Shown: positions 10,101 to 43,340 of the stretch, in pieces
How the letters are laid out: each line of letters opens with the position of its first letter
How positions within the stretch are numbered: the first letter of the stretch is position 1
DNA from: a virus
Virus genome (UHGV): UHGV-1367777
Reading direction: 5' to 3' (one strand)
Length of the DNA: 44,172 nucleotides
Notes under the pieces: generated by a model
The model's input: the letters and a program-made list of their open reading frames with translations, nothing else
What the model was told of the DNA's origin: nothing
The model's database searches: none
Program-made: the position numbers and the translations under genes

Positions 10101-11016
10101 GCTTGATACGGCGACCCAGGCCGAGGCGCTCTGTTATGCAGATGTCATACCAGTGCCACGCCGGGTTATCAGTCCAGGCTCGTTTGAATGTACCATCCCA
10201 ATTGCCGCTATACGTGTGCGTTACCGGGTTATAGTTGGTAGGGACCAGTACCTTGCGCCCTTTAGCGCGGATCGACACCAGGGGGATGTTCTGGAACGCC
10301 TTCGCATCGAACTCGACGAACAGCAACGCCGTTAGCGGGTAGCGTAATCGGGCGTCGATAATTTCCGTGATGGACTGCACCTGGAAGGCGTTAACCACAC
10401 GGGCGTCGGTTGAATCGTTAGTGACGCGGCGAACCTCGACACGCCAGGATGACGCGGCACCGTCCGGTAACTCAATGCGGTGATCGCGCTCATAGAGAGA
10501 CATCGTCTTACCCACGGCGGAGAAATCGAACGTCTTCGGCGAGGCATTGTCGGTGTAAACCACGATCTGATAATCAATGCGGCCGCCTACCAGGTCCCCG
10601 TCATCTTCCTGGGTGTACAGCGCCGGGATTCCGATGCGGATGCGCACGGCATCAAGTCCGAGGTTGTTGATCTGGCGCACCCACGGCTGGTTCTTCTCAA
10701 CTTTTACGCCCACCGGGATTTCACTTTCAACCGCAGAGAAGCCCGGAATAACGCTCTGCGACTGTGTGCCAGGGCGAAATTCGACGCGGGTGTTCGGGAA
10801 GTTCTCTGACCCGTCCGCGTTCTGTACCGGAGTCCCTCCCAGGTAGACGCGCTGCCGTAATTCGTTGGCAGTTGGGATGTTTTCGAATTCGCCTTCGCCC
10901 AGGGCGATAAGCATGCGGACTTTAGCCAGGCTGTGCAGGCTGTCCGGTGTTTCCTGTGGGGTGTGCGGCTTTCCGCCGCCGCCTTTATGCCCAGATACTG
11001 AATGTTGCTCAATCAT
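7174..11016 (-). CDS. J: host specificity / central tail fiber protein (lambda gpJ-like)
   Basis: 1280 aa. Shares lambda J blocks (GHTP near the N-terminus; NYNPxTxxYSGxWDGTFK). It is last in the I-K-L-M-H tail tip series. Confidence 0.85.
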   Translation of the reverse strand: MIEQHSVSGHKGGGGKPHTPQETPDSLHSLAKVRMLIALGEGEFENIPTANELRQRVYLGGTPVQNADGSENFPNTRVEFRPGTQSQSVIPGFSAVESEIPVGVKVEKNQPWVRQINNLGLDAVRIRIGIPALYTQEDDGDLVGGRIDYQIVVYTDNASPKTFDFSAVGKTMSLYERDHRIELPDGAASSWRVEVRRVTNDSTDARVVNAFQVQSITEIIDARLRYPLTALLFVEFDAKAFQNIPLVSIRAKGRKVLVPTNYNPVTHTYSGNWDGTFKRAWTDNPAWHWYDICITERLGLGRRIKPEMLNRYAIYQIAQRCDQLVPDGNGGQEIRFKNDMYIQAQTDAWTVLKDLASIFAGMSWWGNQMLNLISDQPVTSAAHVLNNANVIEGRFDYATGSQKTRYSTFSVAYGDPANHYADAIANGMRAELVRRYKINQLSLSAIGCTRQSEAQRRGHWALITNQLDSQVSFQVGLEGLFYIPGSVVAIADVNISGGAEIRGGRLMDPPGNRNVVITDQEITFRPGDRFIVRTAGGQMETRDIVSVSGTSVTLDSALSADPIPNQPFVVDGDDIQVQQYRITDLQYDDANNTFTVRGVEYNESKYDAVDRGSRLDTGIYTQVPDSTLKGPASVTLTPSQVSSQGVLITNVDIVFPPVPNAMVYEIQWRRTSLQDTSVSWGNDWVNLPRTASNGARVENVFEGNYQARVRAIGMGETSSPWVSSAITSVSGRIGALNAPVMLAAESGLHQIKWQWDLNNSASDISYTELQVQVPGQSTWAFVTNAPYPADDYAQTSLEFGIYLNARARVADKSGNLSGWSNVVQGQVSDNVNDYMKGLDESFLSAEDGKVLLEKINTTPEGIYESMLGDHQSILSERAEFGNIYADIQVNYNLIADQTQALAQLETLVATQYDEQQSAIYTLQTANATQDQAFAEYQTSVAARFGTVEGQVDKNGNAIAQNEAAIATNQQAIATQTQALADYKVQVAAEFGQQSAAIEQKMTSQFTATSGSAIYSLKAGVTYNGTYYDAGMVLSTIANGSGVISRIAFKADQFYIMHPSNGTLVSAFIVSGGAVYIDTARINNASISFAQISDTLRSNNFVSGSTGWNLPKSGNAEFNNVVVRGAVYANTGSFTGSINATSGSFTGTVEATSFVGDVANVGIGADATASGGTNAARTVTYTDSSTGNLNKAVLAEAVFYASANSDTIMDVTINIGGNTKTFSNVALRSGTQGNWFVFRHAVRNVTSRQVPVTFTAISANTVNKQILAPTVTIARGTGSFA

Positions 11017-22928: not shown

Positions 22929-23246
22929 ATGAGTGAAGCGCTGAAGAAGTTTTTATCTGAATGGCTGGAATGGGCTGAATCAGGAGCGCAAGGACATGAG
23001 GCCTTCGATCGCAGTTTCGGCCTGTGCGCTAACCTGGGATTTTGGCTTACAGAGAATATCCTGGATATCCCGTGGGAAGAAGCCGACACCGCAGAAAGGG
23101 AGTTCGGCCGTCTCCTGCATGACGAATTCGGCGATGAATACATGTACCCGTTTGGGCGTGTTGATTACCTTGTCCGGGGAAACAACGGTACTCAGCATTT
23201 AAACGAAGCGCGCCTGGCCTGGGCGCGCAAACAATTAGGAAAATGA
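22929..23246 (+). CDS. hypothetical protein (paralog of the C-terminal half of the 33891-34415 product)
   Basis: MSEALKKFLSEWLEWAESG...MYPFGRVDY...ARLAWARKQL aligns with LKQFLAEWLVWAETG...MYPFGKVAY...KRLAWVREML. Confidence 0.55.
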   Translation: MSEALKKFLSEWLEWAESGAQGHEAFDRSFGLCANLGFWLTENILDIPWEEADTAEREFGRLLHDEFGDEYMYPFGRVDYLVRGNNGTQHLNEARLAWARKQLGK

Positions 23247-23989
23247 GCATGAAACTGACAAACGAAATTCGTAATAAAATCCTGGCTAACATCGTTGCCG
23301 ATCACGCGGTCTCGGCCGAAGCGCGTACTGTTATCGACCGCTCACACGCCCTGGCTATGCAAGTTCTTAGCCTGGCGTACCCGAAAGGCGTAACGAACAA
23401 CGCCGAAATGGACGAGTGGTATCAAGCCGAGCGTAAGCGCACCGACACAGAGAGTATGTTAAGCACCAACTATTATCTGAACTACGTAACGGTGTACCGC
23501 GACCGAGACCGCAAAACGATCGGCATTCGCTCGGACAAGTTCGGCGTTAACGCAGGAGGACACGCCCGCGAACTGTTCCTAAGCGGAGATTACCACGATC
23601 AGGAAGGGCGTACGTTCGATGACTTTAGCCCGTGGATGGGTCCTATCGTGCCGGGCTACGCGTTGTCTAAGATGAAAGGCCTTCTCCAGTACGACGAGTC
23701 AGGCGCGTTGCAACGATTTTTCCTTCCGTACTCACGCGTGACTTTGAAGGGTCCAGCCCTCCTCGACGAGTTGGACGCGCTCGACCAAATGCGCCGTGAA
23801 GTGTGGGAGAAATACATCACGCTTCGGTCCGTAGTGTGGGCCACGCTGTCGAAATACAACTCAGACAGTAAACTGATCGAAGCCTGGCCGGAAGTGAAGC
23901 CGTTCATCCCGGCCGAGCAAAAGAAAACGGGCACGGCGGTAGCCCTCGATACCGCAACCTTAAACGCAATTTGTGGACTTCCTAAATGA
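23243..23989 (+). CDS. hypothetical protein (248 aa)
   Basis: ATGA-coupled to the upstream gene. No recognisable motif. Its 3' ~90 bp is tandemly duplicated downstream. Confidence 0.5.
   Translation: MSMKLTNEIRNKILANIVADHAVSAEARTVIDRSHALAMQVLSLAYPKGVTNNAEMDEWYQAERKRTDTESMLSTNYYLNYVTVYRDRDRKTIGIRSDKFGVNAGGHARELFLSGDYHDQEGRTFDDFSPWMGPIVPGYALSKMKGLLQYDESGALQRFFLPYSRVTLKGPALLDELDALDQMRREVWEKYITLRSVVWATLSKYNSDSKLIEAWPEVKPFIPAEQKKTGTAVALDTATLNAICGLPK
23885..23973. repeat. direct repeat copy 1 (~89 bp)
   Basis: Near-identical to 24022-24111: CTGGCCGGA(a/t)GTGAAGCCGTTCATCCCGGCCGAGCAAAAGAAAACGGGCACGGCGGT. Confidence 0.85.
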
Positions 23990-24288
23990 AAAAATTAGCA
24001 CTGGCGGTATTAGTCCTGGCCCTGGCCGGATGTGAAGCCGTTCATCCCGGCCGAGCAAAAGAAAACGGGCACGGCGGTGGCCCTAGATACCGCCACTTTA
24101 AACGCAATTTGGGGGTTACTAAAATGGTCGCGACAACAAAACACACGGCATCATTCGCCGAATGGTTCGAAGAGTACCGCAAATACTCACTATCACAGGG
24201 TATCGCGGCAAACTTCCCGGAAGAGTGGGAAGAAGATTATGAGGCGGGTAAAACGCCTGAACAAGCGTTTAAAGACGCGTGGGATTAA
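23986..24288 (+). CDS. lipoprotein (signal peptide MKKLALAVLVLALAGC) fused via the duplicated segment to a 54-aa C-terminal module
   Basis: Textbook lipobox. After the signal, the ORF reads through repeat copy 2 in an alternative frame into MVATTKHTASF..., which has its own possible start near 24125. Confidence 0.45.
   Translation: MKKLALAVLVLALAGCEAVHPGRAKENGHGGGPRYRHFKRNLGVTKMVATTKHTASFAEWFEEYRKYSLSQGIAANFPEEWEEDYEAGKTPEQAFKDAWD
24022..24111. repeat. direct repeat copy 2 (~90 bp)
   Basis: See copy 1. Confidence 0.85.
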
Positions 24289-24291
24289 ACG

Positions 24292-24322
24292 AAAAAGCCC
24301 GGCTATTGCCGGGCTGCTTTTA
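24292..24322. terminator. bidirectional terminator AAAAAGCCCGGCtattGCCGGGCTGCTTTT
   Basis: Sits between the convergent + moron island and the - spanin genes. Confidence 0.6.
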
Positions 24323-24560
24323 TCTCGTCCTGAAGCTCATAGACCTGCTGCCTCAACCGCCTACCACAATCCATGTTCTGCACGTCAATCATCAAATCAG
24401 CGTCCGGATCGGCAACCGGATCGGCGAACTTGCACGGCTCAGTTGTCATAGCCTTCGATAGTGTTGGCATTGGCCACGGCGCGCTGTTTGAGTTGCACCC
24501 GGTCAGTGCTGAAATTACACTTAGCATCAGTGCCAGTTTTAATGTACTTGACCACGTCAC
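24303..24560 (-). CDS. Rz1: o-spanin (Rz1-like outer-membrane lipoprotein)
   Basis: Lipobox ALTGC, Pro-rich, and overlapping the 3' end of Rz in another frame. Confidence 0.6.
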   Translation of the reverse strand: MTWSSTLKLALMLSVISALTGCNSNSAPWPMPTLSKAMTTEPCKFADPVADPDADLMIDVQNMDCGRRLRQQVYELQDEIKAARQ

Positions 24561-34814: not shown

Positions 34815-37073
34815 TTAGTCCGCCAAATCGTCGTCGGTGGCAACCAATTCACGCACAATTCCGTCCGGGATCACCAGGTTCGATGTGCCCATTTGCATGC
34901 CTGTGTCGGGGTCCCGGTAGCCTTTGAACACGCCCCTTTCGATTAGCGCGTTGATGGCCGTTGTGTTCGTTCCGCCCTTCTCATAGCCCGCTTGCTTCAG
35001 TATGGCCGACTTGCTGAAGCCGTGGTGCCCTGGGTTGGCCTCCATCAGCGCTTCGAGCGCCGCGACGAATTCCGCTTCCTTCTTATTGCGCGGGCCTTCC
35101 TTCGCTTCGGTGGTCTGCTTCTTCACGATCTGGGTGGTGCCGAACGGTTCCAGCGCGACCGGGACGAGATACAGCGTTTCGTCGCGAGGTGATACGGACA
35201 CTGGCTTGACTGTGTGGCCCGCTGTGATGTCTCCCCAATCCGGGCCGGGGTTGGTGGCCTGGTGCGCCTCGAATGCGGCCGACTTCTTCTGATCGAAACC
35301 AACCTTGCACTTCAGCAGAATGAAGCCGCGTGGGGACTGTCGGGACCCGTTACGCATCTTCTCGTGATACAGGTTGATCTGGCCCTTCTTCTGCTCGTCC
35401 GGTTGCTCAATGAAGAACGCCGTATCAACGGCACCGTGCAGGGCTGACGAGCCACGCGGGGACCTGCTGCCGTTCGGTGATTTGGCCGGGTGGTGGATGA
35501 CGCCCGCTGACCCGCCCGTGGCCTCGCTGATTTGCTTCAGGGCGCTGACTACCTCGCCCATGTCGCTGGCGTTGTTCTCGTCGAAAGGCTTCTTATCTGC
35601 GGCGCGCAACGCCACGGTCTGGTTCAGCGAGTCGAACGTGATAATGCCGACAGGCTCGTCACGGGCCAGTTTGCGGATCAGACGGATGACTTCACGCACG
35701 CCGTGCTTACTGGTGATATCCCACCCGGTGGCCTGCATGTCGATGATGTGCAGCTTGTCCAGGTCGTCCTGGTACTTCTGCCGCAGGGCTTCCTTACGCT
35801 GCTCGGTGGACTCGCCGCCTTCCGCATCGAAATAGAAGTTGTGCGCCTGTACTACCTTCGCGCCACCGAACGGGATTCCGGCCGACACTGCCGCCATCTT
35901 ACCGAGCATATAGAACGATTTACCGATATTCGATTCACCCGCAGCGTACCAGGTAGACCGGAAGTTCAGCAGGCCCTCAACGATCGGGTCGTACTTCGTG
36001 AACAGGGATTCCGGTTCGTTCTCCAGGTCGAAGTCGGTACACACGCCGAAGTCCTCACCATCACCCACGGCGTCGGTGACGTGCTCATACTGCGCGGCAA
36101 CCTCTTCGTCGTCCAGGCCTGGCAACATTTCCGCGATCTGCTTACGGCTAAGCTGGTGAGGCTGAACGTTGATGTGGTCCGGCATACCCAGCAGGCGAAG
36201 CGCCAGGTGCTGGTGACGGTTTAGTTCTGAACAGCACCCGTTACCGGAGTGCATGCAGACGAAGCGCATTTCCTTGCCGTCCAGCATGATCGCGGTTGAG
36301 CCTTCGCCGGAGTGCAGATGTTCGTTTGGGCACGGCACTTCGTACCCACGGCCGGAGGACAGCGGTTCGAAACCCTGTTCGAAGCACCAATCAGAAATGG
36401 CCTGGTTGTCGCCGTTCAGGTCTTCGATCAGTTCCTTCTCTTCTTCCTGGTCAATCCCCAGCTTGTCTGCCAGGCGAAGCAGGCGACGAACACGGACCAG
36501 GTTGCCGTCGTGACACTCGACAACGGACTGAGCATGGGGCAGGTATACCAGGCGGTTGGTATCCACGGTGCAGTCATCGAAACCCACGTCTTCCAGGCCG
36601 AGGGAGTGCAGTAGGGCGTACTGTGCGCGGCCGAAGTCTGCCGCTTCCACTGGCTTGTCAGTCAGCACCAGGACGCGGATACAGCGGAGTCCACCTTTCA
36701 GTTCGTGGCGGTCCCCGGTGGTCGTGTGGAATACGTGGGCCAGGCCGGACTCCCGGAAGGCGCGTTTCACCCGGCGCACGGTGCGGGCGTCAGCACGGTC
36801 CAGGTCATAGAACAGGATCGAGCGGTTGCCGATGTCGGCTTTACGGCGCGTACCGTTAAGGGAGGTCGCCACGATACCGTCGGCGCGGGACTTCTTGCGG
36901 TTGTACCGGGCTTTATCTTCGGTGCCAGAGATCGACACGCTGGAAATATCGCGCGCGTCCTGCATGAATTCGAAGAACTCGGCAACGGTCATCGCCTGGT
37001 TATTTACCCGGGCGGATTCGCCTTTCTTCGCAGGCGGAGTAATGCCGAAGTGAATTAATTTGCTCATTGTCAC
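34815..37073 (-). CDS. DNA primase-helicase (zinc-binding primase N-domain + RecA/AAA_25-like helicase C-domain)
   Basis: 752 aa. Cys/His cluster CPNEHLH...CMHSGNGCC. Walker A GESNIGKS and Walker B IITFDSL. C-terminal ATDDDLAD tail. Confidence 0.75.
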   Translation of the reverse strand: MTMSKLIHFGITPPAKKGESARVNNQAMTVAEFFEFMQDARDISSVSISGTEDKARYNRKKSRADGIVATSLNGTRRKADIGNRSILFYDLDRADARTVRRVKRAFRESGLAHVFHTTTGDRHELKGGLRCIRVLVLTDKPVEAADFGRAQYALLHSLGLEDVGFDDCTVDTNRLVYLPHAQSVVECHDGNLVRVRRLLRLADKLGIDQEEEKELIEDLNGDNQAISDWCFEQGFEPLSSGRGYEVPCPNEHLHSGEGSTAIMLDGKEMRFVCMHSGNGCCSELNRHQHLALRLLGMPDHINVQPHQLSRKQIAEMLPGLDDEEVAAQYEHVTDAVGDGEDFGVCTDFDLENEPESLFTKYDPIVEGLLNFRSTWYAAGESNIGKSFYMLGKMAAVSAGIPFGGAKVVQAHNFYFDAEGGESTEQRKEALRQKYQDDLDKLHIIDMQATGWDITSKHGVREVIRLIRKLARDEPVGIITFDSLNQTVALRAADKKPFDENNASDMGEVVSALKQISEATGGSAGVIHHPAKSPNGSRSPRGSSALHGAVDTAFFIEQPDEQKKGQINLYHEKMRNGSRQSPRGFILLKCKVGFDQKKSAAFEAHQATNPGPDWGDITAGHTVKPVSVSPRDETLYLVPVALEPFGTTQIVKKQTTEAKEGPRNKKEAEFVAALEALMEANPGHHGFSKSAILKQAGYEKGGTNTTAINALIERGVFKGYRDPDTGMQMGTSNLVIPDGIVRELVATDDDLAD

Positions 37074-37607: not shown

Positions 37608-38024
37608 ATGTTAGAACAACTGCTGGCACTGATTGAACGTGGCGTGATCGCTCTGGAAACCATCGCAGAAAGCAAAGCGCCTTCCGACGATAAGCCTGTG
37701 AAGAAGGCGACCAAGAAGGCCGAGCCGGAAGACGAGCCGGAAGAGAAGCCAGCTAAGAAGTCGACCAAGGCGAAGAAGGAAGAGCCGGAAGAAGAGCCAG
37801 CGAAAAAGCCACGCGGTAAAAAGAAAGCCGATCCGGTTGTCGAAGCGCGTGAACGCATCGCCAAGAACGCGGCGCTGATCTCCGGCGGCGACGATGACGA
37901 CGCGATCGACGACTTCGACGACCTGCTGGAAGAGTACGAAGTGAAGTCCATCGACAAGCTGGACGACGAAGACGTGGAAGACTTCGACGCTGATCTGCAA
38001 GACATCGCGGACAAATACTTCTAA
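37608..38024 (+). CDS. highly charged protein: Lys/Glu/Pro-rich middle, strongly acidic C-terminal tail
   Basis: PAKK-type repeats followed by DDDDAIDDFDDLLEEYEV...DDEDVEDFDADLQDIADKYF. It is the first gene of the + early operon and is followed by a terminator/attenuator. Confidence 0.6.
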   Translation: MLEQLLALIERGVIALETIAESKAPSDDKPVKKATKKAEPEDEPEEKPAKKSTKAKKEEPEEEPAKKPRGKKKADPVVEARERIAKNAALISGGDDDDAIDDFDDLLEEYEVKSIDKLDDEDVEDFDADLQDIADKYF

Positions 38025-38289: not shown

Positions 38290-38459
38290 TGGAACACTAT
38301 TTCGTACTGATCGAAAACGGGTTAGGGCGTAAACGGTCAACTCTGCTTAGCGGCGGGCATGCCGATAAGGTATTCGAACGTGCCGAGGCGTGGGCGCTGC
38401 GCGTCACACAGCAATACGGCAACCAGTGGGTAATCATCAAATTCGAGAAGGTGGCGTAA
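38289..38459 (+). CDS. hypothetical protein (56 aa)
   Basis: TAATG overlap at both ends. Confidence 0.4.
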   Translation: MEHYFVLIENGLGRKRSTLLSGGHADKVFERAEAWALRVTQQYGNQWVIIKFEKVA

Positions 38460-39916
38460 TGCAGTCTGGATCTAACACCGAACACTCGATTCTCAGCCCG
38501 TCGGGATCTAAAAAGTGGCTGAACTGCGCCGCGTCGCTTGTGGTTGAGCAGGACTATCCGAACGAGTCCGGCCAGGCGGCGATTAACGGCACCGCAATGC
38601 ACACCGTGTCTGAGGTGGTGCTGAACCGGATTATCAACGAGGGTGCCGACCTGGACGCCCGAACCTATAAAGGGGCTTACGTTGAGGACGAGGGGAAAGG
38701 CAAGATTCGCGCGCACGTTAAGCCGCCGAAGGGCGGGGTACTGGTCAACGATGACATGGTCAAACAGTGTAACTCCTACATTGACCACTGGCGACCACTG
38801 CTCAACGTCTGTAAGTTCGTCCAGCTTGAAATGCGAGTCGACCTTACCCGCATCCTGCACAAAGGCGCGACGGTAACGGTCACGGACCCGCGCACTGGCG
38901 AGAAGTCGAAGGCGGAAGTCCAGACGTTCGGGACTGCCGATATGGTCATGCTGGTCCCGCAGTCGGATGGAACGTTCCTGCTCATCGTGGGCGACCTGAA
39001 GACCGGGCGGCACAAAGTGCATGCGAAGGAAAACAAACAGCTTATGCTGTACGCCCTGGGCGTCCTGCGCAAACTGCGCCGCCTGTACGATATCAGCATG
39101 GTTCGCCTGGTCATCTTCCAACCATACTGCGGCGGTGCCGATGAGTGGGACATCACGCCGGACGGCCTGGACATCTTCGCCAAGTTCGCCAGTAAGCGCG
39201 CCCTGGCCGCGATCGACGCGCTGGAGAAGGGTAAGAAAGGTCTGAAGCCTGCGGACTTCAAGCCGAGCGCCGACGCCTGCGAGTGGTGCCGATTCGCTAA
39301 CGACTGCGGGGCCAGGGCGAAAGCCGCCATTGCGACGCTGCGACCGTCAACGGCAACCGATGACGACCTGGCGGACACGGCGGATAATACCGAAGCGTCA
39401 CCGGAAGAGATCGCGAACCACGAGCGCAATATGGAACGCAAGGCCCGCCGTGAAGCACGCAAGGCCCGCCGTGAAGCACGTAAAGCGCGCCGGGAAAAGC
39501 GCAAGCCTGACCAGTACGCTATGACGCCGGAAGAACTGAAAGTGGCGTATGACGACCTGGACATGATGCGCCAGCACATCAAGCGCATTGAGGATGCCGT
39601 GTTTAAGGCTGTGTTGCAGGGCGAAGGTAAAACCCTGGGTCTTAAGATGGTAGCTGGCAAGGAAGGGAACCGGGCGTGGGGTGACAAAGACGCCGTCCTG
39701 GACATGCTGACTAAATCACGGGTCAAAAAAGACCTGTTTATCAAAGAATCGCTCTTCAGCCCTGCTGATGCCGAGAAGGTTCTGAAAGACGAGAAGCCAG
39801 CAGTATGGGCGAAGTTGCAAGCGCAGATCAAACGCGCCCCAGCTAAGCCTACCCTGGCACCTATCGATGACCCACGCCCGGAATGGTCCGAGGCGACTGA
39901 CGAGGATCTGGAATGA
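38459..39916 (+). CDS. PD-(D/E)XK nuclease, Cas4/RecB-like with C-terminal Cys cluster (DUF2800-like) plus ~190-aa charged C-terminal extension
   Basis: GTADMVMLV...IVGDLKTGRHKV and QLMLYALG motifs. CEWCRFANDCG is a 3-Cys cluster. Internal ATDDDLAD and 3x RKARREA repeats. Confidence 0.7.
   Translation: MQSGSNTEHSILSPSGSKKWLNCAASLVVEQDYPNESGQAAINGTAMHTVSEVVLNRIINEGADLDARTYKGAYVEDEGKGKIRAHVKPPKGGVLVNDDMVKQCNSYIDHWRPLLNVCKFVQLEMRVDLTRILHKGATVTVTDPRTGEKSKAEVQTFGTADMVMLVPQSDGTFLLIVGDLKTGRHKVHAKENKQLMLYALGVLRKLRRLYDISMVRLVIFQPYCGGADEWDITPDGLDIFAKFASKRALAAIDALEKGKKGLKPADFKPSADACEWCRFANDCGARAKAAIATLRPSTATDDDLADTADNTEASPEEIANHERNMERKARREARKARREARKARREKRKPDQYAMTPEELKVAYDDLDMMRQHIKRIEDAVFKAVLQGEGKTLGLKMVAGKEGNRAWGDKDAVLDMLTKSRVKKDLFIKESLFSPADAEKVLKDEKPAVWAKLQAQIKRAPAKPTLAPIDDPRPEWSEATDEDLE
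39437..39499 (+). repeat. 21-bp tandem repeat (2 perfect + 1 degenerate) encoding the RKARREA heptad
   Basis: CGCAAGGCCCGCCGTGAAGCA x2 seen directly. Confidence 0.8.
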
Positions 39917-40243: not shown

Positions 40244-40951
40244 ATGGCTAAAGTAAACCTCCGTAATGTTCGCGTGTGCTTCCTGAAAATTTGGGAACGT
40301 GACACCCCTAAGCAGAAAGACCAAAAGCCCGCATACCGCGCTGTAATCCTGATCGACAAAGAAGATTCGCAGTTCGCTAAAGTCGAAGAAGCGGCCCTGG
40401 CCGTCCTCACTGACAAGCTGAAGTCCGAGAAAAATGCCGAGAAGTGGATGGACCGCCACTTTGGGCAGGATTCTAAAGAATGCTGCGTGCGCGATGGTGA
40501 CGAGCGCGAAGAAGTTACGGAAGAGTTTGAGGGCATGTATTACATCAATGCCAAGTCGTACAAACAGCCTAAGATCCAGACCTCCGAAGGCGAAACCCAG
40601 ACCGAACCGGGCGAAACCGTAGAAGGCGACGAGCCGGAAGGCAAAGAGATCTATTCTGGCTGCTACTGCAACGTCTCGCTGGACATCTGGGCGTGGAACA
40701 ACGACAACGGCAAAGGCCTCGGTGCCGGGCTGCTGGGTCTGCGATTCCGCGACGATGGTGAATCCTTCGGCGGGGGCGGCGGTGAAACGGCAACCGACGA
40801 CGACCTGGGTGACGATGACGACGAACCGAAGTCTAAGAAGGGCAAGTCCCGTCGCGACGAAAAACCTCGCAAGTCCCGCCGTTCTCGTGATGAGGACGAA
40901 GAGGAAGAGGAAGAAGAGGAAAAACCTCGTTCCCGTCGTAATCGTCGTTAA
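40244..40951 (+). CDS. ssDNA-binding protein (DUF2815-like OB fold) with acidic/basic low-complexity tail
   Basis: The N-terminus MAKVNLRNVRVCFLKIWE is typical of DUF2815. Position between DUF2800-like nuclease and PolA. The tail carries ATDDDLGDDDD and a poly-E run. Confidence 0.6.
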   Translation: MAKVNLRNVRVCFLKIWERDTPKQKDQKPAYRAVILIDKEDSQFAKVEEAALAVLTDKLKSEKNAEKWMDRHFGQDSKECCVRDGDEREEVTEEFEGMYYINAKSYKQPKIQTSEGETQTEPGETVEGDEPEGKEIYSGCYCNVSLDIWAWNNDNGKGLGAGLLGLRFRDDGESFGGGGGETATDDDLGDDDDEPKSKKGKSRRDEKPRKSRRSRDEDEEEEEEEEKPRSRRNRR

Positions 40952-41006: not shown

Positions 41007-43340
41007 ATGTATAAGAAAATGATTGGACGCAAGACTAAGCGCGGGCGCGCCAGGGCCTTTAAGCGCATCTTCCTCGACACCGAAACGTTCTCAGCACTCA
41101 ACCTGAAGAAGGCCGGGGCGTACGCCTACGCCGAACACCCGACCACTGAGGTGATGATCTGCACCTGGGCGTTGGATGATGGCAAGGTCCAGACCTGGGA
41201 CGCCACGGAGTCGCCGCGTATGCCTCGCGAACTGCGCCGGGCGCTTCGATCTGTCTGCGCTAAAGAGGCGCGAATCGTCATGGCGAACGGCCTGATGTTC
41301 GACCGCCTGGTCATCCGCGAGAAGTGGGGATTCGACATTCCAGTGTCGCAAATCGACGACACAATGGTAATGGCCTTCCGCTGCGCGCTGCCGGGTTCCT
41401 TAGACAAGCAGTGCGAAGTGCTGGGTATCGGGTCCGACCAAGCCAAGGATAAGGAAGGCAAGAAGCTGATCCAGCGCTTCTGTAAGCCAACGCCGAAGAA
41501 CTACAAAGTGCGCCGTTACTCATCGGCAACGCACCCGGAAGAGTGGAAAAAATTTCTCCGCTATGCCGCGATGGATATCGTTGCGATGCGCGAAGTCTAC
41601 TATCGCCTGCCGACCTGGATCGACAGCGACATGGAAGACAAAATCCTGATTATTGACCAGATGATCAACGACCGTGGCTTCTGCGTGGACGTCGACCTGG
41701 CAAACGCCGCGATCGATGCCGTGGTGAAGCACAAGGCCGAACTGAAAGCCGACGCCCTGGCGAAGTATTACGGGTCCCTCACGGGCAAGGACTTCCTCCC
41801 TATCCTGCGCGAACTGGCCCCGGCGTTCGTCATCCACAACGCACAGAAAGCGACGCTGAACGACCTGCTGGAAGACCCGGACTTCCCGGACGAGGGCAAG
41901 GCCCTGATCGAAATGCGCCTGGGCGTGTCGTCTACCGCGTCCACGAAGTACACCCCACTACTGGCCGGGCTGTCCGCTGACGGTCGACGCCGTGGCTGTC
42001 TTCAGTATGGCGGGGCTAAGCGTACCCTGCGCTGGGCTGGCAAGATGTTCCAGCCACAAAACCTGGCGCGCGGCGAAATCAGCGACGACGTCGAGCACAA
42101 GATGAAGCAGGAACCAGGCGAATCCGATATCGCGTTCTGGGTCCGGTCGCACATGCTCACTAACGGCATCAACGCGCTGTTACGCGGCCGCGCGCATATG
42201 GCGTATGACGTGTCCAAGTTGACGGCCGCCACGGTGCGCGCATGCATCATTCCGGCACCGGGTAAAAAGTTTGTCGTTGCCGACTATGCGAACGTCGAAG
42301 GGCGCGGCCTGGCGTGGATCGCTGGCGAGAAAACGGCGCTGGCCGTGTTTAAAGCTGGCCGTGATATCTACTGCGAGACTGCCGGTAAGATGTTCGGCCT
42401 CGATCCGGCGTTCATCAAAGAGCATCGCAAGGACCTCCGCCAGATCGGTAAAGCCTGCGAACTCGGCCTGGGCTACGGCGGCGGCGTTGCGGCGTTCCTC
42501 CAGTTCGCCAAAAACCTCGGCCTGGACCTGTACGAAATGGCGCGCGTGATGAAAGGCACGTTCCCGGACCACATCTGGGCGGCCGCAAAACGCGGGTACG
42601 AATACGCCAAAATCAACGAGAAGAAGCGCCCGCCGAAGCCGGGCAAGAAAGACGAGCGCCCTACCTTCATCCTGCCGAAGAGCGTGTGGCTGACCTGCGA
42701 CGCGATCAAACGTATGTGGCGCGAATCGCACCCGGAAACCGTAGCGTTCTGGGCCGAACTGGAAGGCGCTGTATTGGCCGCTATCCGTAATCCGGGTAAA
42801 TCGTACTGGGCTGGCGCGAACGTGCGCGAGGATGGCCGCCAGGCGCTGAAAATTATGCGCACGAAGGCGAAGCACGATCCGACGTTCGACGAGGACCGGG
42901 ACGACCCTGACGAGGCGGGTTGGTGGTTGAAAGTCGAGTTGCCGTCCGGTCGCATCATGTCTTACCCTGGCATCGGCCTGTCTGTCCAGACGGAAGTTGA
43001 CGAGGACACCGGGAAGAAGAAGACCAGCACCCGGATCAAGTACCAGGGCGAGAACCAGACGACGCGCCAGTGGGGGTGGCAATACACCTACGGTGGCAAG
43101 CTTACGGAAAACATCGTCCAGGCGCTGTGCCGCGATATCCTGGCCTGGTCCATGCCGCACGTCGAGGACGGCGGGTATCCGATCATCCTGTCAGTACACG
43201 ATGAGCTGATCACAGAAACGCCGGACGAGCCGGACTATACGGCGACCGAGTTAGAGCGCTTAATGTGCATCCTACCGACGTGGGCACAAGGGTTCCCGCT
43301 GGCCGCAGAGGGTGACGAGTTAATGAGGTATCGCAAATGA
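41007..43340 (+). CDS. family A DNA polymerase with 3'-5' exonuclease domain
   Basis: Exo I IFLDTETF. Pol motif A VADYANVEGR. Motif B RQIGKACELGLGYGGG. Motif C LSVHDELI. Confidence 0.9.
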   Translation: MYKKMIGRKTKRGRARAFKRIFLDTETFSALNLKKAGAYAYAEHPTTEVMICTWALDDGKVQTWDATESPRMPRELRRALRSVCAKEARIVMANGLMFDRLVIREKWGFDIPVSQIDDTMVMAFRCALPGSLDKQCEVLGIGSDQAKDKEGKKLIQRFCKPTPKNYKVRRYSSATHPEEWKKFLRYAAMDIVAMREVYYRLPTWIDSDMEDKILIIDQMINDRGFCVDVDLANAAIDAVVKHKAELKADALAKYYGSLTGKDFLPILRELAPAFVIHNAQKATLNDLLEDPDFPDEGKALIEMRLGVSSTASTKYTPLLAGLSADGRRRGCLQYGGAKRTLRWAGKMFQPQNLARGEISDDVEHKMKQEPGESDIAFWVRSHMLTNGINALLRGRAHMAYDVSKLTAATVRACIIPAPGKKFVVADYANVEGRGLAWIAGEKTALAVFKAGRDIYCETAGKMFGLDPAFIKEHRKDLRQIGKACELGLGYGGGVAAFLQFAKNLGLDLYEMARVMKGTFPDHIWAAAKRGYEYAKINEKKRPPKPGKKDERPTFILPKSVWLTCDAIKRMWRESHPETVAFWAELEGAVLAAIRNPGKSYWAGANVREDGRQALKIMRTKAKHDPTFDEDRDDPDEAGWWLKVELPSGRIMSYPGIGLSVQTEVDEDTGKKKTSTRIKYQGENQTTRQWGWQYTYGGKLTENIVQALCRDILAWSMPHVEDGGYPIILSVHDELITETPDEPDYTATELERLMCILPTWAQGFPLAAEGDELMRYRK

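Follow-up and report, generated by a model that had tools for sequence, protein, structure and literature searches.

Acidic tails with one hydrophobic anchor are already known to tether phage replisome proteins. In phage T7, gp2.5, an SSB (protein binding single-stranded DNA, ssDNA), and the primase-helicase gp4 carry one such acidic motif with a key hydrophobic residue (EEADEDGDF and DWSNDTDF, respectively) on disordered tails, and the polymerase lacks it. In crystals of the structurally homologous SSBs of the PF10991/Enc34 type, i.e. ORF6 of phage Enc34 (DUF2815; 5ODJ), 4JG2 and 4KLK, as well as in those of T7 gp2.5, the tail rests against the concave beta-sheet of an adjacent molecule, with 842 A2 buried in Enc34, where it is traceable to about residue 188, through SDAYD (PMC5686142). 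The bacterial SSB tip (DDDIPF) likewise combines acidic and hydrophobic residues in a linear motif, borne on a disordered tail, through which the enzymes of genome maintenance are organised, and the clients of sliding clamps (PIP box, beta-clamp motif) are several enzymes that share one linear motif and one hub. Here we analyze the 44,172-nucleotide virus genome UHGV-1367777 (the window, i.e. the whole stretch of DNA analyzed), in which the peptide ATDDDL is common to the primase-helicase, a Gp2.5/Enc34-type SSB and a DUF2800/Cas4-like nuclease. From its sequence pattern across relatives, the peptide is best read as this clade's form of the Gp2.5/Enc34-type SSB tail motif, a stretch of acidic residues surrounding a single hydrophobic or aromatic one, and very probably serves as a docking tag, its candidate role being the assembly of the replication/recombination machinery.

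In the six-frame translation of the window, ATDDDL/TDDDL occurs exactly three times, each time within a replication protein. The earlier note on this DNA, which had described an acidic peptide shared by these three proteins, is thereby confirmed; however, its count of three copies was too low, because the copies at the nuclease C-terminus and in the primase-helicase linker had been overlooked, and its coordinates (34815-34845) cover the primase-helicase copy, the other copies lying outside that span. There are five copies in the window, including the degenerate linker one; these, and the segment that follows the SSB copy, are as follows.

34818-34841, minus strand: primase-helicase C-terminal copy ATDDDLAD (residues 745-752); the protein ends RELVATDDDLAD, with the stop codon at 34815-34817.
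36015-36041, minus strand: degenerate primase-helicase linker copy CTDFDLENE (residues 345-353), between the primase half and the AAA_25 domain.
39353-39376, plus strand: nuclease linker copy ATDDDLAD (residues 299-306), in the context STATDDDLADTADN.
39893-39913, plus strand: nuclease C-terminal copy ATDEDLE (residues 479-485), the stop codon following directly; the end reads WSEATDEDLE.
40790-40813, plus strand: SSB copy ATDDDLGD (residues 183-190 of 235), in the context GETATDDDLGDDDDE.
40814-40948, plus strand: SSB polyampholyte extension, in which D/E runs alternate with PRKSRRSR-type units, with an Arg-rich tip.

The motif-bearing peptides take the forms ETATDDDLGDDD, VATDDDLAD-COOH and EATDEDLE-COOH. 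They differ from the T7 tails, which end in Asp-Phe-COOH (GDF, TDF), in having Leu as the anchor, and none places a Phe-COOH at the extreme C-terminus: the last residues are L-A-D in the primase-helicase and L-E in the nuclease, and the SSB copy, located eight residues past the conserved OB-fold end DGESFGG, is internal because the polyampholyte extension of about 45 residues comes after it. Unlike T7, the window also has internal linker copies, and its exonuclease bears the motif twice, in contrast to T7 gp6, which lacks it. The likeness to T7 and E. coli tails drawn in the earlier note thus stands as an analogy with gp2.5 and gp4 but does not extend to a terminal position or a terminal Phe. 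Compared with the bacterial SSB tip, there is no Pro-Phe, the SSB copy is not terminal and the fold is of the Gp2.5 type; moreover, in bacteria the peptide is on the SSB alone and the partners have pockets, whereas here it is also borne by the partners. No clamp is present in this system, and the clamp-binding motifs are unrelated to this one in sequence. The SSB extension, modeled by AlphaFold2 (AF2) with a predicted local distance difference test (pLDDT) score of 52-54, consists of units (K/R)P(R/K)(K/S)(S/R)RR and has the tip KPRSRRNRR, which is unusual for an SSB tail; SSB homologues from other bacteria and phages (P0091-P0112) have 4-8 polyampholyte repeats and exceed 300 amino acids (>300 aa). 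In one homologue (P0111), a long repeat rich in Ala, Pro, Phe and Gly, FGAAPAAAPFGAAP, stands in place of the acidic tail, which makes this protein an exception to the rule.

The motif is found at homologous positions in relatives with 45-68% protein identity. Across 37 nuclease homologues, A299, D303 and L304 of the linker copy are invariant, with an indel-rich stretch just downstream, and so are A479, D481, D483 and L484 of the C-terminal copy. Among 76 SSB homologues, columns D185, D186, D187, L188 and D190 are 79-89% conserved; the OB-fold end D-G-E-x-F-G is conserved across the family, with the motif eight residues beyond it. The same site reads AESDF in 4KLK, AADDF in 4JG2 and SDAYDED in Enc34, so that, by alignment, the traceable tail residues SDAYD of Enc34 are the motif site. 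In the AF2 models, the nuclease core is confident, whereas pLDDT falls below 50 (<50) at residues 271-314, around the linker copy, and is about 48 in the last C-terminal block; in the SSB, pLDDT is about 63 in the motif block and about 52 in the remainder of the tail. The copies are thus conserved islands in variable, indel-rich flanks of disordered, low-confidence segments and recur in non-homologous proteins, as is typical of short linear motifs.

We compared about 120 loci in all (80 polymerase-anchored, 8 SSB-anchored, 6 distant isolated phages, Enc34 and 20 Enc34/Chi-like). Over the module to which these genes belong, duf2800-duf2815-polA, the motif occurs in three dialects, and the SSB, nuclease and primase of one genome use the same one. 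The L-type, [AVC][ST][DE]xDL (also written [ST]D[DE]DL), is found in the Dhillon/Jersey/Kaguna-like clade (polymerases 60-81% identical), with the variants ATDDDL, ANDDDL, CSDEDL and SVDDLE in the SSB, ATDEDL, VSDEDL and VTEEDLE at the nuclease C-terminus, and ATDDDL, ASDEDL and VTEEDLE at the primase-helicase C-terminus. The F-type, [DE][DE]F[DE][DE][LIV], is that of most other lineages, including APSE-2, phages of Paenibacillus, Streptococcus, Gardnerella, Lachnospiraceae and Phocaeicola, and the proteins 4KLK and 4JG2; SSB/nuclease pairs of this type include DDFDDISEGADADALI / NDFDDVSDDALAADLI, SLEDEFAD / SLEQEFAN and ASADEF / ASADEF, and many proteobacterial loci have a second hydrophobic tip at the C-terminus, beyond the motif. 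The third dialect, an aromatic residue followed by a D/E run and V-COOH, is seen in Enc34/Chi-like phages (L096, L098-L116), in which five module proteins carry motif ends (Val/Ile-COOH or WDDEED): the SSB ends SDA[YW]D[DE]DEDEWDEDEV, the nuclease GA[YWF]DDEDDDDEV, the primase PFDDEDDEV, the small ORF3 EEDDV and the SNF2-like helicase WDDEED, each directly before the stop codon. In these same loci, no such end is present on the polymerase, whose tail is unrelated, or on the VRR-NUC protein.

The copies differ in how widely they are distributed. The nuclease C-terminal motif, in the dialect of the SSB tail, is present in nearly all lineages examined, and the most widespread copy is that in the interdomain linker of the primase, which reads CTDADLDNE, CTDEDLDDD or SLDDLEDDE in L-type relatives and VDDFEDLT or VDEFDDLT in F-type phages. 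Among the latter is APSE-2 (primase ATVDEFDDLT, SSB SVEEFDDLS), and the linker motif is retained even where a VirE/D5-like helicase half takes the place of AAA_25. The C-terminal copy on the primase-helicase is restricted to the L-type clade: among 61 non-redundant loci, the end [AVST][STDA][DE]xDL plus 0-2 residues was found in 20 of 20 L-type and 0 of 41 F-type loci. In one L-type subclade (L001, at 10795-10986; L002, L024, L025, L028, L038), a 62-residue open reading frame (ORF) lies between the SSB and polymerase genes; it ends RRKAMTATDEDLE before a stop codon that overlaps the polymerase start, and its body diverges among loci while the tail is kept. Judged by this tail, its product, which the window lacks, would be a fourth docking-motif protein.

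The association with the module proteins is specific. We took a census of every ORF of at least 30 residues, translating all six frames of the window and of 95 fetched loci (96 in total); the L-type motif formed the end of 32 nucleases, 31 primase-helicases, 7 copies of the 62-residue polymerase-adjacent ORF and 5 unrelated ORFs. An unbiased scan with the SSB core motif of each genome gave matches (p<=0.05) in 12/23 nucleases, 8/22 primase-helicases and 16/302 other proteins. SSB tails resemble nuclease tails of the same locus more than those of shuffled pairings (p<=5e-5 for 54 non-redundant loci; also for 19 representatives), and this holds within the F-type representatives (p=2e-4). The two proteins change in step, for example, ATDSDLDD/ATDSDLDD, ASADEF/ASADEF, SLEDEF/SLEQEF and DFDDIS/DFDDVS, and the L versus F contingency is 21/22 for L/L and 37/44 for F/F. 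Within a genome, then, proteins that are not homologous have clade-specific variants in common. Judging from these sequence comparisons, the in-step occurrence of the motif in disordered parts of three proteins (five in one clade) is best explained by a single, co-evolving common acceptor.

At the DNA level, the primase-helicase copy in the window matches the others at 19-21/30 nucleotides, and the nuclease-linker and SSB copies are identical at 25/30. The earlier statement that codon usage differs between copies, against a recent duplication, thus holds for the primase-helicase copy but not for the nuclease-linker and SSB pair, and a codon test over the 54 non-redundant loci bears it out more generally: at 223 positions where the SSB and nuclease C-terminal motifs have identical residues, 99 codons are identical compared to 100.3 expected from codon usage. 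The similarity is therefore kept at the protein level, by selection on the peptide, and gene conversion as the source of the likeness is ruled out. ATDDDL is the only 6-mer present in at least 3 of 60 ORF products, and a 6-mer common to three proteins appeared in 0/300 global and 1/300 local shuffles (the latter within 30-residue blocks). The docking-peptide idea of the earlier note is upheld by the retention of homologous positions, by three dialects changing in step and by this lack of DNA copying, but requires revision as to the tail-tip form and the copy number; similarly, the TDDDLxD octapeptide is conserved at the protein level and shared, but is not specific to this phage, being a local form of the motif of the Gp2.5/Enc34-type SSB family.

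The window is the genome of a Dhillonvirus-like E. coli siphophage, with replication-region DNA 75-78% identical to that of Escherichia phages Pandora71 and SECphi18. Its replication module has two arms, one per strand: the minus arm comprises the primase-helicase and a helix-turn-helix protein, and the plus arm comprises the remaining genes below, in this order, followed by that of a VRR-NUC protein.

34815-37073, minus strand: primase-helicase, 752 residues, with two motif copies; PHROG 3228, 'replicative helicase-primase' (E=1.6e-289); Pfam AAA_25 at residues 359-532.
37608-38024, plus strand: acidic protein, PHROG 3127 (function not known), with DDFDDLL at 37908-37928.
38459-39916, plus strand: DUF2800/Cas4-like PD-(D/E)XK nuclease, 485 residues; PF10926 (E=1.4e-62), also PF12705.
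40244-40951, plus strand: Gp2.5/Enc34-type SSB, 235 residues; PF10991 (E=1.3e-31).
41007-43340, plus strand: family A DNA polymerase, the core replication protein without the motif and a candidate acceptor.

The nuclease belongs to the Cas4-like/DUF2800 class, as indicated by both Pfam matches, a 1+3 cysteine set (C23, C274, C277 and C283, invariant in the 37-homologue alignment) and a Cas4/AddB-like fold, the top Foldseek matches being Cas4-family ACE1 (E=2e-6), AddAB, MGME1 and RecE; a metagenome-contig protein (P0118) is 100% identical to it. Three tandem 21-nucleotide repeats in its gene (39436-39498) encode RKARREA heptads, predicted to form a long charged helix (residues 315-346), and both the repeat number and the whole segment differ among close relatives. 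Family membership of the SSB is clear (110 bits against PF10991, with a cut-off of 26; PHROG 112, E=9e-53; PDB relatives 4KLK, E=3e-12, 5ODJ, E=1e-9, and 4JG2), and its AF2 model has the OB fold at residues 1-172 (pLDDT >90), with predicted helices 44-59 and 62-72 after the N-terminal strands, corresponding to the long helix after strand beta2 that marks the family. In the acidic protein, the earlier note had seen a related motif; FDDLLE is indeed invariant in five relatives, and DDFDDLL is a possible extra copy, but the downstream hydrophobic periodicity suggests that it sits in a helix of a folded domain, and an assignment to the same motif is not possible. The centre of this protein is of low complexity and rich in K, E and P, and its N-terminus shares the heptapeptide ALIERGV with a site near the primase-helicase C-terminus. 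Elsewhere in the window, a 106-nucleotide direct repeat (23883-23988 and 24021-24126; 90% identity, spacing 138 nucleotides) encodes a duplicated peptide, VKPFIPAEQKKTGTAVALDTATLNAI, in the ORFs 23243-23989 and 24032-24451.

As to the acceptor, we place the SSB OB fold first and the polymerase second; both may hold, as in T7. The reading that we tentatively favour, by analogy with the Enc34-type crystals and at slightly less than an even chance, is that the SSB-tail motif has been copied to partner enzymes and docks on the OB-fold groove of a neighbouring SSB. Besides the crystal contacts, two observations set out further below also speak for this site, the change in DNA selectivity on deletion of the Enc34 tail and the contest between the T7 gp2.5 tail and ssDNA for the cleft. 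Under this scheme, a short linear motif of the SSB would have been copied into disordered segments of enzymes that act on SSB-coated DNA, namely the interdomain linker and C-terminus of the primase-helicase and the linker and C-terminus of the Cas4-like nuclease, and every copy would compete for a single basic acceptor site, namely the groove in which the tail binds, on the concave beta-sheet of the adjacent OB fold. Such tail mimicry would let the primase-helicase and the nuclease attach to SSB-ssDNA filaments or cap them. This would permit helicase loading and priming on the SSB-coated template, and the exonuclease could pass the ssDNA that it has resected on to the annealing-competent SSB, in the manner of exonuclease/annealing-protein recombinase pairs. 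A basic patch of the polymerase may be a further contact for these tails, as in T7. A more specific proposition, to which we commit ourselves less, is that the client enzymes (nuclease, primase or primase-helicase, and in some clades an SNF2-like helicase and small proteins), instead of a pocket for the tail, bear the tail peptide of the SSB itself and would insert into or cap SSB-ssDNA filaments by contending for the acceptor groove of the next SSB, and that private clade dialects insulate replisomes from one another.

Gene order is compatible with the handover step. The nuclease gene adjoins the SSB gene in almost every lineage examined, directly so in Lena, Gardnerella AB1, APSE-2, Javan630, NatCom and Enc34, and in the window the two are separated by one 84-residue ORF; this is the neighbourhood of an exonuclease and annealing-protein recombinase pair, and Gp2.5-type proteins have been grouped with the annealing proteins (PMC8093625). 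Together, these observations fit an exonuclease/annealing pair that needs a specific contact. In the lambda Exo-Beta and RecE-RecT pairs, the exonuclease gene similarly lies beside that of an annealing-capable ssDNA-binding protein and a specific contact is needed; the proteins are unrelated in sequence to those considered here, for which the exonuclease-SSB contact is inferred only, with the shared tail motif as the candidate.

Several points weigh against the OB-fold acceptor. The AF2 monomer of the full-length SSB does not place the tail on its own OB fold, and the tail contacts in the crystals could be packing artefacts. The pairing test within the L-type is weak (p=0.06, n=6 representatives), the permutation tests ignore shared ancestry, and the L/F split is essentially one evolutionary event. 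Because the loci were gathered via polymerase or SSB homology, the composition of the module is partly imposed. In addition, the motif is missing from just one core protein in all three clades, the polymerase, which suits a T7-like polymerase hub equally well. That the motif binds, and what it binds, is inferred from anatomy and precedent.

In such a T7-style hub, the peptides would tether the helicase hexamer, SSB and nuclease to a basic patch of the family A polymerase, with SSB-SSB contacts irrelevant; this is possible but doubtful. In T7, the tails of gp4 and gp2.5 bind gp5, and gp4 DTDF sits on its front basic patch, K587/K589/R590/R591 (PDB 6P7E, cited in 10.1101/2025.03.07.642097), and the window polymerase has KIMRTKAKH aligned with T7 KWKRRW, as proteobacterial F-type polymerases have KVRR or KARR, but the alignment in this region is of low reliability, and the aligned patch is non-basic in Firmicutes phages (KYRY, VFTY) and in Enc34 (VIEY), where the tails are present. 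L-type polymerases have a clade-specific basic loop, EKKRPPKPGKKDERP (INEKKRPPKPGKKDERP; residues 534-549 of the window polymerase, 42606-42653), which is shorter and non-basic in F-type polymerases and absent in those of T7, Enc34 and Firmicutes phages; as acceptor sites, this loop and the aligned front patch are leads only. There is no structural precedent for a polymerase hub within this SSB family, and because T7 gp6 has no such tail, the T7 model leaves the nuclease copies unexplained.

Two other features of the polymerase were considered and set aside. With the annotated start, the polymerase has a strongly basic extension at its N-terminus, MYKKMIGRKTKRGRARAFKR (net +10; 41007-41075). 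Relatives, whose polymerases begin 6-9 residues before the ExoI motif, lack it, and for this reason the basic N-terminus RKTKRGRARAFKR was rejected as a general acceptor; either the true start is further downstream or the extension is a private basic tail of this phage. Internal matches of the form DLLxDxDLPD (LLEDPDFPDE in the window) were rejected as a linear motif because the block is conserved in all polymerases of the family. The polymerase of Gardnerella phage AB1 (L092) has an insertion of about 320 residues in motif B, between GKIAELA and CGYGG, which looks like an intein or homing-endonuclease insertion.

It is unlikely that the peptides have no common partner, each acidic segment being a DNA-mimicking autoinhibitory or solubility element acting in cis, with the likeness reflecting the same physico-chemical need. 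All three proteins bind DNA, and the tail of T7 gp2.5 is said, following work by Marintcheva in 2008, to compete with ssDNA for the protein's own cleft. Further, deletion of the Enc34 tail shifts the selectivity between single- and double-stranded DNA (PMC5686142). However, a generic need for charge predicts neither the invariant Ala, Thr/Ser and Leu, nor genome-specific exact variants across non-homologous proteins, nor a primase linker motif that outlasts a swap of the helicase half.

Even less probable is mimicry of a host factor, whereby the peptides would imitate the bacterial SSB tip (DFDDDIPF / DDDLPF) and recruit or titrate the host proteins that read it. What speaks for this is sequence likeness only, F-type DFDDIS resembling the E. 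coli tip DFDDDI(PF) and L-type DDDL the Gram-positive DDDLPF, but the peptides lack the Pro-Phe-COOH that defines the tip, and several of them are internal. Moreover, the dialects differ within one host range, Dhillon/Jersey-like phages being L-type as opposed to the Chi/Enc34-like ones, all on enterobacteria, which argues for a phage-encoded acceptor. Chance, or recent copying of DNA between genes, was examined and is hardly credible: acidic linkers are common, and the nuclease-linker and SSB copies of the window are close at the DNA level, but the shuffles and the positions kept over the compared loci contradict the former, and the codon identities the latter.

No prior description of the shared motif was found in the searchable literature, the coverage of which is incomplete; the Enc34 study (PMC5686142) covers the SSB tail only and makes no mention of the same peptide on the nuclease, primase or other module proteins. 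New here are the motif occurring twice on a Cas4-like exonuclease, the linker copies, the Leu anchor, the polyampholyte after the SSB copy, and the three dialects; Enc34 ORF6 agrees with the window SSB in family, in the place of the motif after the OB fold and in the crystal segment on the neighbour's sheet, and differs in its dialect.

Hundreds of sequenced phages are replicated by the duf2800-duf2815-polA module, among them Dhillonvirus, Jerseyvirus, Kagunavirus and Chi/Enc34-like phages, APSE of aphid symbionts and many phages and prophages of Firmicutes, Bacteroidota and Actinobacteria. To our knowledge, its architecture has never been worked out, and the motif would yield the first interaction map of the module. 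In the Dhillonvirus phages SECphi4 and SECphi18, the SSB, polymerase and primase-helicase determine escape from Retron-Eco8, Borvo, ShosTA and Hachiman (10.1101/2022.08.27.505566), and Retron-Eco8 is activated by the SECphi4 SSB itself. A clade-specific docking peptide would be a cheap and direct handle on the interactions within the module, predicting separation-of-function mutants and competitor peptides. It also suggests a route by which a Cas4-like exonuclease may be coupled to an annealing-capable SSB, which is relevant to recombineering tools. If true, tail mimicry would be an inversion of the logic of the bacterial SSB-tip hub.

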